From IMG/VR virus record IMGVR_UViG_3300036796_000091, positions 1-29,294 of that record: a stretch of 29,294 nucleotides of DNA. One strand, written 5' to 3'. The stretch comes from a virus (Duplodnaviria; Caudoviricetes). Made by a program: the position numbers and the translations under genes. The notes under the pieces were generated by a model that saw only the letters and a program-made list of their open reading frames with translations, was not told the DNA's origin and did no database searches. Shown piece by piece: positions 12,796 to 29,142 of this stretch (position 1 is its first letter; the number at the start of each line of letters is the position of its first letter).

Positions 12796-12896
12796 TGGTA
12801 CTACAGGCAGGAATCGAACCTGCATTACATCACTTATCTGGTGATTGCTTTATGGAGGTATAAGCTCCACTCTCGGCCAATATTAGCAACTGTAGT
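12796..12896 (-). tRNA. Atypical 101-nt tRNA-Ile-like RNA with two anticodon-like arms (UAU and GAU)
   Basis: Acceptor ACTACAG/CTGTAGT + A + CCA; T-arm GCAGG-TTCGATT-CCTGC; arms TGGAG-CTTATAC-CTCCA and ATCAC-CAGATAA-GTGAT. Confidence 0.8.
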
Positions 12897-12905
12897 ATTT
12901 AGAAA

Positions 12906-13162
12906 CGGAGTTTTGGTAACGCAGACTCCTAACTGCGAGGCTTGTTGGTGAAATTGATATTACGTAACTGTATGCCAGGAACAAGCAGGGATTGATGGTC
13001 CCGAAATATCAAATCACTCAGGCTGAAGATGTAGCTCTAACTACTTTAGTAGTTTCCCACATCTCCGAACTCCCCATTTAGTGAGGAGCTGATCATTGCA
13101 ACTTGAGGAGTGGAAGAAATTAATAGAGCTTACACTACCTGAGAGGTTGCAACACTGCAACG
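12906..13162 (-). ncRNA. Candidate large structured ncRNA with pseudoknots
   Basis: Many nested and crossing complementary segments (see findings) in an intergenic region with no credible ORF. Strand inferred from the operon. Confidence 0.55.
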
Positions 13163-13190: not shown

Positions 13191-15047
13191 TTATCCATGC
13201 CCATGCTTTACGCGGCTGATAACTTCATTTTGCTTCCCTTCAACAAATGGACGTGCATTCGGTGCTCCAAGATATCCGCAAACCCTTCGCGTTACTTGTA
13301 AGGTATCTGAATTATTCCCACAACAAGGGCATTCAAATCCGTTCTCAGTTGCAACAGACTCACCTGCGTAATCACATTCTCCACAGTAATCAACGGGCGT
13401 ATTAACTCCGAAATAATGGATATGTTTTGCTGCGTAGTCTATTACAAATTCAAGCGCGTTAATCTGCCCTTTCATATTCGGGAGTTCTACGTAGGAAATA
13501 CATCCACCGCTTGCAATCTTGGTGAATGGTTTCTCATAATCAAACTTCACTGTTGGGCTAACTTGACGATTCACATCAAGGTGATGAGAGTTGGTGTAGT
13601 AACCTTTTTCAGTTACAGAGTTAATCCCAAATTCCCCTCTGTCTAGCCTACAAAAACGATCGCACAGACTTTCTGATGGAGTAGCATATAACGCATAACC
13701 TAAACCAGTTCCGTGTTTCTTTTCATCTACACGCTGCCGAAGGTATGTAAGAACAGCTTTTAGAAACTCATTAATGTCAGATCTGTTAATGTTCGGCATT
13801 CCATCGAGATCATTCGAGATATCTTTGAACATGGCCAGAGCCAACTCATGTAACCCAATGTAGCCAAAGGAGACTGATGCCCGATCTTTGAAATGCGGGA
13901 ATATCTCTTCCTCCGGGTCTAATCGAAGACCGAACGCACCTTCGCAGTATAGAATGGGGGCTACTTTGGCCTTAACACCCTTCAGCTTGGACACACGATA
14001 ATTTAAGGCATCGAAGGTAGTGTCTGTTGTTGCTTTAAGTAGTTCCCAAAAGTCCCGCATGTTGCCATCAGCAAGCATACCAATGCGTGGTAGGTTGATA
14101 GAGACCACGCCCAAGTTATTGCGGCCATCCACTTCGCCGGAAGGCACGCCCGAAAGAAAGCTTCTGCAACCCATTGGCGCTTTAAAATCACCAGTGACTT
14201 CTACAACCTTGTCATAGCTTAGATAGTCTGGGTACATGCGTGTTGCAGTACATCGCATAGCAAGTTGCTTGATATCGTAGTTCACATCCCCGGCTTTAAT
14301 GTTTATCCCTTCTCTCAGAGTGAACACTAGTTTTGGGAACACAGCAGTACGTTTATGTTTACCCAAACCTTGCAAGCGAATGTCTAATATTGCTTTCTGA
14401 ATCAGGCGCGCCTCCCAACTGGTGCCCAGCCCAAAACCAATAGTTACGAACGGCGTTTGTCCGTTGGCTGTATGGAGTGTATTAAGCTCATACTCCAGTG
14501 CTTGAATAGCATCGTTGACTTCCTTGGCTGTCATTTCGGTTGCCATTACTGATGCACTCGCTTCATCACCTTTTAGCCATCTACGGGCAAAAGCATGATG
14601 CTTGTTGTATGACTTACGAACATACTCAGCCATCACTTCATCAAATCGGTTAAGGCTTTGGCCCCCATATTGGTGGGAAGCAACTTGAGCAACAATCTGT
14701 GCTGTAACAGCCACAGCAGTAGAAATTGATTTTGGAGACTCAATCTCCGCATTTCCCATCTTGAATCCGTTACGTAACATGCCGTCCAGCTCGATGAGAC
14801 AACAGTTCGACATGGGGAAATACGTGTAGTCAAGATCATGAAAATGGATATCACCAGAAATATGAGCTTTCGCGACATGCTCCGGCATTTCGTTCAATTC
14901 AAGAAATTTACTAATTTCACCAGCAACCATATCCCTCATAACTGGAATACGTTCACTAGCTTTATTCGCATTATTGTGGAGCAAAGTGCTATCTGCACTA
15001 CCATTAATAATTTGTTTAATACTTTCAATAGTGTCAGATAATTTCAT
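13191..15047 (-). CDS. nrdD: Anaerobic (class III) ribonucleotide reductase, lacking ATP-cone
   Basis: HNNANK, IHFHDLDY, SNCC, GQTPF, FPKL, MGCRSFL, TPSESLCDRF, CxxC...CPCC and glycyl-radical motif RRVCGYLG. SD AGGA before ATG 15047. Confidence 0.96.
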   Translation of the reverse strand: MKLSDTIESIKQIINGSADSTLLHNNANKASERIPVMRDMVAGEISKFLELNEMPEHVAKAHISGDIHFHDLDYTYFPMSNCCLIELDGMLRNGFKMGNAEIESPKSISTAVAVTAQIVAQVASHQYGGQSLNRFDEVMAEYVRKSYNKHHAFARRWLKGDEASASVMATEMTAKEVNDAIQALEYELNTLHTANGQTPFVTIGFGLGTSWEARLIQKAILDIRLQGLGKHKRTAVFPKLVFTLREGINIKAGDVNYDIKQLAMRCTATRMYPDYLSYDKVVEVTGDFKAPMGCRSFLSGVPSGEVDGRNNLGVVSINLPRIGMLADGNMRDFWELLKATTDTTFDALNYRVSKLKGVKAKVAPILYCEGAFGLRLDPEEEIFPHFKDRASVSFGYIGLHELALAMFKDISNDLDGMPNINRSDINEFLKAVLTYLRQRVDEKKHGTGLGYALYATPSESLCDRFCRLDRGEFGINSVTEKGYYTNSHHLDVNRQVSPTVKFDYEKPFTKIASGGCISYVELPNMKGQINALEFVIDYAAKHIHYFGVNTPVDYCGECDYAGESVATENGFECPCCGNNSDTLQVTRRVCGYLGAPNARPFVEGKQNEVISRVKHGHG

Positions 15048-15086
15048 ACACTTCCTATTTAATAGCTTCTCCATCTGTTGTTAATG

Positions 15087-15235
15087 TGGTGGTAGCGGCA
15101 GGACTTGAAACTTCAAACCATTCCAGCTTACTGTTCAGTAAACAGCTCTCTGACCTTTCGGACAATCATCTAATTTTTTTTAAGAGTAGGCGCGCATAGT
15201 CGCCTCGTGTTATTTACTCACCTTACGGTGCTACC
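15087..15235 (-). ncRNA. tRNA-like RNA (~149 nt) with CCA end and multi-hairpin body
   Basis: GGTAGC/GCTACC acceptor-like stem + A-CCA; T-loop TTCAAGT with a degenerate T-stem; GNRA hairpins CACC-GTAA-GGTG and TGTCC-GAAA-GGTCA. Confidence 0.5.
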
Positions 15236-15240
15236 TTTAG

Positions 15241-15374
15241 TGCTCCCAGATATGGGATTCGAACCCATGTTTCCTGCGTTTCGCTTACATTGAATATGAG
15301 AATATTGCTAGCCATCCTCTCACACCTTTGGCTCACTACTCAGCACGCGTATTCGGCCACTATACTAATCGGGG
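15241..15374 (-). ncRNA. tRNA mimic (134 nt) with anticodon loop replaced by a pseudoknotted insert
   Basis: Acceptor CCCCGAT/ATCTGGG (6/7), D-arm GTAT-AGTGGCCGA-ATAC, T-arm ATGGG-TTCGAAT-CCCAT, 3' end A-GCA, ~65-nt insert. Confidence 0.72.
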
Positions 15375-15397
15375 TCTGTCTTTCAGATACCACTAAA

Positions 15398-15545
15398 GCT
15401 CTCTTAATTCTGTCTCCCGTTTTATTAATCAGAGCACGGGAATAACACTCCGCCGAATTAGTTACAAGGAATCGGAAGACCTCGGAGAGCACTTAAATTT
15501 AATTAAGCGGCAACTCGCATTTCAGAATCGTTTGCATTTATATTT
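15398..15545 (-). ncRNA. tmRNA-like messenger module: resume signal, tag frame ANDSEMRVAA* (15503-15535) and downstream pseudoknot domain
   Basis: TATAAAT GCA AAC GAT TCT GAA ATG CGA GTT GCC GCT TAA matches the WATARNYGCNAA resume consensus and the AND...AA tag pattern. Followed by a GCTCTC/GAGAGC-closed domain with an H-type pseudoknot. Confidence 0.65.
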
Positions 15546-15583
15546 AAATGAATAAAATAATCGCTACTAAACTCGGAAAACCA

Positions 15584-15644
15584 CTTCAATGAATACTCTA
15601 ATCAGGTGGTGAACGACGGGCCACGAAGAGAGTATTCATTGAAG
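15584..15644. repeat. 16-bp perfect inverted repeat with 29-nt loop
   Basis: CTTCAATGAATACTCT (15584-15599) / AGAGTATTCATTGAAG (15629-15644). Confidence 0.9.
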
Positions 15645-15674
15645 CCCACCCTTTCAAATGGACTTCGTGAAGAA

Positions 15675-16043
15675 TTACTGAGGGAACAGCTCTTCTTCTC
15701 CAGCAACCACTACTTCTTCAGTAGGGGCTGCATCTTCTGCCTTAGCAGTAGTATCAACTTCAACCACTTTCTCTGGTTTTGGGGTGTCGAACGCAATGCG
15801 CTCAACTTCTGGGCAACCGGCATCTTTCCATGGGATATAGAATGCCAGGAACTCACCGACCAGATTTGCTGCGGTCACACGAGCACGATCAATACGTTTA
15901 GTGGAGTTCACAAACGCTTCAGCAGCAGCATCAATTACTGCTTTGTTTTCCAGCATGAAGTCATATGCATCAGCCTCTGCCGCAGTTGCGAACTGAGAGC
16001 CATCGTTAGCTTCGAACATCTGAATTTGTACAATCTTAGCCAT
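15675..16043 (-). CDS. Hypothetical protein with acidic tail
   Basis: 122 aa; SD AAGGA; Ala/Glu-rich. Confidence 0.8.
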   Translation of the reverse strand: MAKIVQIQMFEANDGSQFATAAEADAYDFMLENKAVIDAAAEAFVNSTKRIDRARVTAANLVGEFLAFYIPWKDAGCPEVERIAFDTPKPEKVVEVDTTAKAEDAAPTEEVVVAGEEELFPQ

Positions 16044-27984: not shown

Positions 27985-29142
27985 TTACGTTCTATCTATT
28001 GCGTTCTTCATTAATGTGATAGGTTGTTTATTCCTATACACTTTGTCTGTTGTGGTGCTATGCGCGTGCCCAAGTATTGAGTAGCGTACATGATCTGGTA
28101 TATCAACGAGATCTCTTAAACGGTCACTCATCGAATATCTGTAGCAGTGAGGTGTTCTCTTCAAATTAACTTTTTTAAATGCAATCCTAACCCTATCCCC
28201 TGCGCTTCCAACTGTCCGCCAGTGAAAAACAGGTTTGATTTCCATTATTCCAAACTCAATTAAATCTTTATGTATTGGTACGCATCTTATGGAGTTAGAG
28301 TTTTTAATTGTCTTGTCTCCATCGTCGTTTATGCTAAAGCAGTGTATGCCATCGACAATTACATAGTCCTTCTTAGATAATTGAGCCGCTTCTCCTATCC
28401 GCATCCCTGTATACCAAAGTATATTCATTAGCCATTTAAGTTCAGCATCTTTTGTGTTTTCTAGTGCAAGGAGGTGTTCCGCTGGTGTGATATTCTCCTT
28501 CTTGCTTAAACTTTTCACATTCTTGTATAGCATACCTTTCAGTGGATTTTTATTTAAATATCCGCGTTTGTTGATTGCGAAGTTAAACAACCCTGAAATG
28601 CTAGTTAATCCACTTTGACGAGTATGGGGAGATTTATAAGCCTTATCTAAATGCAATTTATATTCACTAATGTCCTTCTTTGTAACATCATGAAGATGGA
28701 CGTCACCTTTCCATTTAATAAAACCCAATACCCTGTCTTCGTTTAATTTCATTGTTTGAGGGGACCAGTCTCTGTCCATTTCTGACACCCATTCCTTCAA
28801 CGTGTGGGACAGACTTGGCGAAAGAGTAACTTCTGCTTGCTGTGTAGGCGACACCATCTGGCAGATAGATTCAAGAAGGTGAGAATCAACAAACCTATCT
28901 CTTAGAGAATTAAGGTTTGATTTGATGGTTAAAGGCGGGATTCCTAACTGCTTAAGTTTAATAAATGCAGAAGTCAGATTGACGTATCGGTTAAGCGCTT
29001 GCCCTTCATCTTTCGTTCTCAAGCTTATACGTAAAACAACTCCCTTGTACTTCCGCTGCCAAAGGAATGAACACTCTGACTTGCTCCTCCGATCAATCAG
29101 ACCGGGGTATAAAGAAGGTGTAAAGTTTAGGGGAAGATTCAT
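27985..29142 (-). CDS. int: Tyrosine recombinase / integrase
   Basis: YTGMRIGE (R), IKN...R.VPIH (K), HCYR (HxxR), LGH, terminal VY; N-terminal RISLRTKD arm-type motif; SD AAGGAG. Confidence 0.93.
   Translation of the reverse strand: MNLPLNFTPSLYPGLIDRRSKSECSFLWQRKYKGVVLRISLRTKDEGQALNRYVNLTSAFIKLKQLGIPPLTIKSNLNSLRDRFVDSHLLESICQMVSPTQQAEVTLSPSLSHTLKEWVSEMDRDWSPQTMKLNEDRVLGFIKWKGDVHLHDVTKKDISEYKLHLDKAYKSPHTRQSGLTSISGLFNFAINKRGYLNKNPLKGMLYKNVKSLSKKENITPAEHLLALENTKDAELKWLMNILWYTGMRIGEAAQLSKKDYVIVDGIHCFSINDDGDKTIKNSNSIRCVPIHKDLIEFGIMEIKPVFHWRTVGSAGDRVRIAFKKVNLKRTPHCYRYSMSDRLRDLVDIPDHVRYSILGHAHSTTTDKVYRNKQPITLMKNAIDRT

Follow-up and report, generated by a model that had tools for sequence, protein, structure and literature searches.

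The window, i.e. the whole 29,294-nt stretch of DNA that was analysed, comes from a Chaseviridae-like phage and covers a fragment of it: the RNA polymerase encoded there shares 42-44% identity with those of Faunus, ST32 and their relatives, records of the Faunus/ST32 type are classed as Chaseviridae in taxonomy, and the gene order of the window agrees with theirs. A cluster of RNA features occupies a 600-nt gap between a gene for a 122-residue protein on one side and nrdD on the other. The features of the cluster and its upstream anchor, all on the minus strand, are the following:

15675..16043, minus: upstream Chaseviridae gene phrog_17419, the synteny anchor, outside the RNA
15583..15645, minus: long hairpin (predicted fold) with 17-nt strands 15645-15629 and 15599-15583, ending where the arm starts
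15554..15584, minus: antisense arm, with block A (15584-15576) opposite E. coli tmRNA nt 99-107
15572-15569, minus: middle segment of the arm, complementary to E. coli tmRNA nt 92-95
15564-15554, minus: block B of the arm, complementary to E. coli tmRNA nt 81-91, including A86 and the resume codon
15536..15553, minus: AU-rich linker and tmRNA-type resume signal (U at -5, A at -4)
15503..15535, minus: tag frame ANDSEMRVAA* (TATAAAT-GCA...GCT TAA), as read in the sequence
15486..15518, minus: predicted helix-5-like hairpin of the last tag codons and stop with the following 18 nt
15453..15484, minus: pseudoknot A, CGAGG (15484-15480)/CCTTG (15469-15465) crossing CCGA (15475-15472)/TCGG (15456-15453)
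15414..15452, minus: pseudoknot B, CGGAGT/GCTCTG crossing TTCCCGT/ACGGGAG
15180..15407, minus: the cassette, a separate RNA with a tRNA mimic in a conserved scaffold, outside the tag module
15374-15245, minus: the tRNA mimic itself, with D-stem, T-arm and enlarged anticodon arm, GCA replacing CCA
15087..15165, minus: tRNA-like stretch ending in ACCA, apparently decayed

The nrdD gene (anaerobic ribonucleotide reductase; 13191-15074, minus) directly follows the RNA cluster, at a place where the annotated relatives shown carry a spanin and small genes. A tyrosine integrase (phrog_1; 27985-29142, minus) adjoins the RNA polymerase region; its tblastn search against the phage collection gave 11 matches, all distant (22-29%) and none in Chaseviridae records. 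The window phage bears an integrase and may hence be an unusual member. ARAGORN overlooked a tRNA-like gene at 12799-12896 (minus; Rfam 40.8 bits, anticodon GAU), whose D-loop has a 32-nt insertion; ST32-like phages have a comparable tRNA, with its D-loop expanded and its anticodon loop shortened. Just 5' of tRNA-like elements in Chaseviridae lies a short conserved hairpin motif, CAAGCCTCGCAG...CTGCGTT..CAAAAC (window 12905-12945, minus), which recurs in loci L003, L004, L005, L006, L017, L019 and L021. In Proteus phage Myduc, which is without the module described below, the same region holds an annotated CCA-adding nucleotidyltransferase (L016:6392-6961).

Architecture and distribution of the tag module

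Judging from its sequence, the segment 15585-15414 (minus) is a putative anti-tmRNA arm joined to a replacement tag template; a tRNA-like domain is absent. From 5' to 3', the module comprises the arm, a resume signal, a 10-codon tag, a stop-codon helix and two covarying pseudoknots. The initial annotation had singled out the frame ANDSEMRVAA* behind TATAAAT-GCA, which is indeed present at 15535-15503; as in tmRNA, a resume signal is followed by a frame for an Ala-rich degron and a stop, and the U at -5 recurs in 97/102 modules. The tags are 10 codons long, like that of E. coli, and end in AA or VA in 55/55 modules among the matches listed. A VA end also works as a degron, and SspB favours an aromatic side chain where M or V stands in many phage tags. 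ClpX binds to the LAA terminus, in which the last alanines are crucial (PMC3968760, PMC8778911).

Conservation of the frame, which had been proposed as a check, is borne out by synonymous variation of the last Ala codon and by the retained AA or VA ends; it is partly circular, as the first codons were set by the search pattern and the tag is part of model R1. The last Ala is GCC, GCT or GCG among 48 distinct 10-codon DNA versions, a set pre-filtered for a final Ala that shows codon variety, not the ending. Codons 4-8 vary freely and depart from the host's at the very positions where the arm would otherwise pair with the phage's own frame. An alternative frame from the ATG in AAATGC was rejected: substitutions within it change amino acids, and in Faunus it is cut short by a stop.

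The helix-5-like hairpin is predicted in 16/16 folded modules, at -7.5 to -12.2 kcal/mol, an uncontrolled figure. The two helices of pseudoknot A are 88% and 94% paired, with two-sided changes at 2/5 and 4/4 pairs; the first stem of pseudoknot B is 100% paired with 4/6 pairs two-sided, and its second stem varies in sequence across homologs while complementarity is retained. A per-sequence pattern finds pseudoknot B in 37/43 modules, one of them misplaced. Taken over three helices and 32 aligned sequences, 94.4% of the cells are paired and 10/15 pairs have changed on both sides; paired cells and covariation score lie above all 500 shuffles, and slid controls reach 30-52%. The suggested covariation check thus speaks for the helices, and the H-type pseudoknot CGGAGT/GCTCTG crossing CCCGT/ACGGG of the initial annotation stands, at 15452-15414, joined by two features absent from it, pseudoknot A (15484-15453) and the antisense arm (15584-15554).

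Two longer-range pairings proposed at the same time were not supported by comparison. Both halves of GCTCTC/GAGAGC occur in just 3/18 module loci; GCTCTC folds back onto tag codons, and GAGAG has a partner in the 3' end of the cassette itself, a pairing with two-sided changes. The ~480-nt fold through AGTAGCG/CGCTACC has both halves in 1/18 loci, i.e. the window itself. Of the proposed TAATTC/GAATTA helix, the TAATTC half overlaps pseudoknot A at its 3' strand. A circular-permutation reading, with pseudoknot A as T-arm and D-loop, was also rejected, the loop and the downstream strand covarying as a pseudoknot.

The module is present in Chaseviridae, Ounavirinae, Ackermannviridae, Schitoviridae, Roufvirus and P1. 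It was read in Felix O1, phiEa104 and Michonne (Ounavirinae), KpS110 (Ackermannviridae), Pollock (Schitoviridae), pYD38-A (Roufvirus), HC6, pAh6-C and P1, and it is unannotated in the laboratory phages P1, Felix O1 and ST32. A blastn search with the 600-nt gap matched many phages, mainly across the tag-bearing part; among Chaseviridae loci, the block from resume signal through tag and hairpin to the two pseudoknots is constant and the flanks are variable. One homolog, used as query, matched 504 phage records (364/504 with at least 80% coverage at E up to 1) and 617 plasmid records, the latter mostly over half of its length, representatives alone of both sets having been read. A pattern that excludes the arm found at least 120 viral loci, and 81 of those listed reach at least 81 bits with the arm-free model (locus L208 lies outside the module label list, is a duplicate in the arm test and is absent from the codon, hairpin and promoter counts). 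Since host ssrA loci score 16-26 bits with the arm-free model and modules 77-124, the module is not a recent host fragment. It is dispensable: the loci of Myduc, PM1, PP101 and EaPF7 gave no match.

In EaPF7 the entire arm and tag have given way to an HNH-like gene, so called for its resemblance (L020:4500-4930), and the 4HA13-like locus L013 (2650-3090) has an HNH-like insertion at its 3' pseudoknot, the pseudoknot end being duplicated. A divergent module (L036:1484-1697; R1 score 51.9 bits) differs in its pseudoknot region and has a tag of 13 codons (ANDESNGEMRLVA); a pattern for this 13-codon type gave no matches. For prophage copies with a differing host tag, model R1 found 0/28 in Yersinia-genus genomes, with one DNA match that was spurious. 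Prophage-copy samples at order and family level gave 0/151 and 1/151, with just 23 of ~1000 candidates per genome scored, and a class-level pattern gave 1/401 hits, itself not a module; the prophage blanks are little informative.

The antisense arm and its predicted host target

The arm was taken as the 30 nt before the linker, with E. coli K-12 tmRNA as the reference target. The predicted duplex between the window arm and this tmRNA has -24.6 kcal/mol, and 0/300 dinucleotide shuffles are as strong (shuffle mean -13.0). Among the matches listed of the arm-free set, arms are stronger than all 40 shuffles in 53/55 distinct modules versus 2/31 non-module controls, and the duplex averages -29.6 (mean z -4.5) in the 55 module arms and -11.2 in the controls; these arms come from related sequences and count for fewer than 55 independent cases, though several phage families are spanned. 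The ST32 type is one of the misses, because an inserted hairpin moves its block A beyond the stretch tested. When the whole tmRNA was scanned in 40-nt segments, the best one overlapped the resume region in 34/43 modules and lay elsewhere in 9/43, 18 of the 43 modules coming from an arm-containing pattern. Predicted pairing is focused on host nt 86-91 and 97-105, with a gap at host nt 92-96 in most modules, and a second module subtype has an extra block against the 3' strand of host pk1. From the end of the duplex, the phage resume codon is 14-18 nt away in the window's subtype; in the subtype that invades pk1 the distance is mostly 22 nt. The module thus has the conserved complementarity beyond chance that characterizes trans-acting antisense sRNAs.

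The arm's target is near-invariant among enterobacteria, which limits a covariation test of arm against host. All six Erwinia/Pantoea Chaseviridae pair ~4 kcal better with an Erwinia-genus ...ENF... tmRNA and 5/5 others favour ...ENY..., the ENF type being only 2/30 Erwinia-genus tmRNAs and its change possibly a single event. There are counter-examples: Erwinia phage phiEa104 prefers ENY, and the arm of Yersinia phage PYps23T reaches -24.8 with Y. similis and -30.1 with E. coli. The Erwinia pattern is only suggestive of covariation between arm and host. The window arm fits the ...ENY... type best among eight host types. No confirmation of the E. amylovora tag was found in the literature; one Erwinia-genus tmRNA (L152, G051) has a 21-codon tag containing an internal AND motif.

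The long hairpin that precedes the arm is likely a processing site, which would make the 5' end of the RNA, and we infer that RNase III acts there; 57/93 modules lie directly behind the 3' strand of a predicted stem, a count without a control. An exact TTGACA with a 16-17-nt spacer and TAnnnT, ending 7-12 nt before the arm core, occurs in 19/102 modules and in 11/20400 shuffles, and such sigma-70-type promoters would start transcription, and so place the 5' end, at the arm. The promoter scan of the window gave no site at the arm; most modules without a promoter match, the window included, follow a long hairpin instead.

Neighbouring tRNA mimics and known tmRNA forms

The cassette combines a fixed scaffold with a variable tRNA-like insert, whose anticodon arm is enlarged and variable, in a layout loosely like that of YrlA-type Y RNAs. 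Its alignment across 10 phages has 230/230 cells paired and 7/23 pairs two-sided, and its single-sequence fold is unremarkable (z -0.91). The 3' end is GCA or GCT for CCA and runs on into a conserved helix; a tRNA, with cloverleaf, 7-nt anticodon loop and free NCCA end, it is not. Cassette-type RNAs of 180-280 nt are common to Chaseviridae, a T5-like phage, Arno162 and a jumbo Yersinia phage (loci L001, L002, L003, L004, L015, L020, L023, L290, L291 and L292), and blastn with the cassette gave 107 records at E up to 1. The initial annotation had counted two tRNA-like RNAs next to the tag: the first (15374-15245), with D-stem and T-arm, holds, and the second (~15165-15087) has its ...ACCA end at 15087 and no matching 5' acceptor strand. 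This second stretch is no more stable as a fold than its shuffles (z 0.25), lacks homologs in the phage collection and is probably a relic. Neither mimic has a G3.U70 acceptor, as had been noted.

ARAGORN at default settings called nothing in the window, and relaxed settings gave only weak calls, one inside the primase gene; the sole Rfam match in the gap was to the T-arm of tmRNA, over 18 nt and at 13.9 bits, where the cut-off is 47. The view that the locus is not a normal one-piece or permuted tmRNA is upheld: a T-arm scan of the window found no acceptor stem with G3.U70 and CCA enclosing the tag, the 50 nt upstream hold the antisense arm and linker in place of pk1 and helix 2, and permuted tmRNA models gave no gathering-level match in the window and 8 other loci (best 19.2 bits against 50, in L002). 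The module would work like the message half of a tmRNA, outside both tmRNA gene forms.

With one-piece tmRNA (SsrA, RF00023, E. coli type), the module shares the resume signal, the GCA resume codon, the 10-codon AND...AA tag and, in identical order, the stop-codon helix (here the predicted H5-like hairpin) and downstream pseudoknots; it differs in lacking the tRNA-like domain, helix 2 and pk1, in having two pseudoknots only and in its anti-tmRNA arm. Like the coding piece of two-piece tmRNAs (RF01849-RF01851), it carries the tag template on a separate RNA that would be base-paired to the tRNA-like part. The two-piece coding piece, however, gives half of the acceptor stem and helix 2 and is cut from a transcript shared with its partner, whereas the module does neither and is predicted to pair with the message region of an intact host RNA. 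The TLD-only tmRNA of mycobacteriophage DS6A is likewise a phage-borne fragment proposed to act on host trans-translation (PMC4131195, PMC11915505), but it is the opposite half, with the tRNA-like domain kept and neither tag nor antisense arm. Synthetic antisense oligonucleotides to the mRNA-like domain address the same target domain (PMC8778911); the module, in contrast, is natural and phage-encoded, has an interrupted predicted duplex and is linked to a replacement template. Its possible back-up logic and its location in tRNA clusters recall the phage tRNAs that stand in for host tRNAs after cleavage by anticodon nucleases (PMC10264068), except that these replace whole molecules, the module would patch a host RNA by pairing, and no nuclease has been identified for it. 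Neither cassette nor module has an Rfam family, and no description of the module was found in the literature searched (mainly non-subscription); the candidate models of PMC10690425 may hold part of it unnamed, and the available part of the report on sRNA-17 (PMC7719688) makes no mention of tmRNA or ssrA.

Possible functions of the module

The direct observations are the sequence, its conservation, the covariation and the complementarity statistics, and this evidence points to the host's own tmRNA as the module's partner. Transcription, duplex formation in cells, translation of the tag and its purpose are what we infer from them. The reading towards which we lean is that the phage RNA masks the host tag frame and is translated instead, using host tmRNA and SmpB, in the following manner: The phage RNA would pair with the resume region of host tmRNA, masking the host resume codon and the first six tag codons. 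The phage frame would be read in the host frame's stead, and stalled proteins would receive the phage tag, while the host RNA would still provide the alanine-charged tRNA-like domain and SmpB. The duplex would stop at the exit of host pk1, with the phage resume codon 14-18 nt further on versus 11 nt for the host's, and the phage helix and two pseudoknots would replace host H5, pk2 and pk3.

In tmRNA, the five bases before the resume codon contact SmpB, which sets the frame from them, and the mRNA entrance is where H5 and pk2 are anchored (PMC8012679). Since the phage RNA keeps parts of the SmpB-contact, H5 and pk2 type, exchange of the template is favoured over inhibition or a splint. In addition, pk1 can be swapped for a hairpin and pk2-4 can be exchanged with tagging retained (PMC3968760). 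Against an exchange, the tags are still degron-like and the gain is not obvious; host H5 and pk2 would, moreover, compete for the same ribosomal site. No precedent for resumption on a second RNA was found in the literature searched. The purpose is the weakest step of the model: because every tag retains an AA or VA end, it is likely that rescue and degradation would be kept running if the host message is cut or attacked, or that the choice of protease or adaptor would be changed. HigB and other RelE-family toxins cut tmRNA (PMC3912914), CoCoNuT systems are predicted to engage tmRNA (PMC11090510), and for the DRT2 defence a benefit from ArfA rescue, in place of tagging, has been proposed (PMC11100668); a phage could thus gain by keeping tagging alive.

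The main alternative, itself rather unlikely, is that the arm purely blocks the host tag frame, the tag-like part aiding ribosome seating or serving as a decoy for SmpB or S1, so that tagging would drop and phage proteins would be spared or rescue moved to ArfA. The identical complementarity data fit, the arm of one subtype also invades the 3' strand of host pk1, and blocking is the proven effect of such pairing, because a synthetic antisense oligonucleotide to the same mRNA-like domain efficiently inhibits trans-translation in vitro (PMC8778911); the TLD-only phage tmRNA has been reported as inhibitory, too (PMC11915505). An inhibitor, however, needs no fixed 10-codon frame, stop and terminal Ala kept via synonymous changes in six phage groups. 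Lost tagging would also favour ArfA, which DRT2 is proposed to exploit (PMC11100668), and host SsrA remains stable during T4 infection (PMC9697503).

That the duplex directs or follows cleavage of the host tmRNA message, with the phage RNA as a splint on the 5' fragment (a three-piece tmRNA) or with tmRNA destroyed, is improbable. Toxins do cut tmRNA (PMC3912914), natural two-piece tmRNAs function with an opened ring and fewer pseudoknots, and block B alone (host nt 81-91) would retain the 5' fragment. Yet the duplex is broken at host nt 92-96 in most modules, contrary to a nuclease-recruiting helix, and block A requires intact host nt 97-107. RNase III, for its part, has helix length needs.

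It is most improbable that the arm is the intramolecular partner of its own resume region, arisen by an old inverted duplication, or that the frame is the end of a small protein, an objection raised with the initial annotation. A weak self-hairpin is possible, and the window has an in-frame TTG at 15589; but the host duplex beats pairing with the phage's own tag region in 55/55 modules among the matches listed and in 43/43 of the other set, and block A fits codons 4-6 of the host, not those of the phage. The small-protein objection fails on the 43 distinct modules, of which 22 have no in-frame start within 30 codons upstream and two an SD-like word before one, with no upstream start conserved among them. 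Least of all survives the original model of separate phage messenger and tRNA modules that jointly rescue ribosomes, which is largely refuted: its stand-alone tag template and proposed action in trans are retained, the cassette directly follows the module in the window and lies within 1.1 kb of 7/18 modules, and both reside in phage tRNA/ncRNA clusters, but the adjacent mimics are not the tRNA module, because the cassette is absent near 11/18 modules, exists without the module in KEY, Arno162 and fHe-Yen9-04 (1.5 kb examined) and has a D-stem and neither G3.U70 nor CCA, and there is no conserved module-cassette pairing, the arm pointing to host tmRNA.

If the host tag frame is masked and the phage frame read in its place, the modules could be widespread phage guide RNAs with which the ribosome jumps from the host tRNA-like domain to a viral frame, tagging being restored or redirected when the tmRNA message is under attack by host defences; we regard this broader proposal as evenly balanced between true and false. 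If true, it would comprise a natural tmRNA-targeting RNA and trans-translation that resumes on a third, virus-encoded RNA, neither of which was found in the literature searched. The copies in P1, Felix O1 and ST32 make the module directly testable in E. coli K-12. Pure blocking would make it a natural inhibitor of an antibiotic target. A swap of the tag would allow programmable peptide addition to stalled proteins with ssrA untouched, and would imply an unrecognised defence aimed at the tmRNA message.
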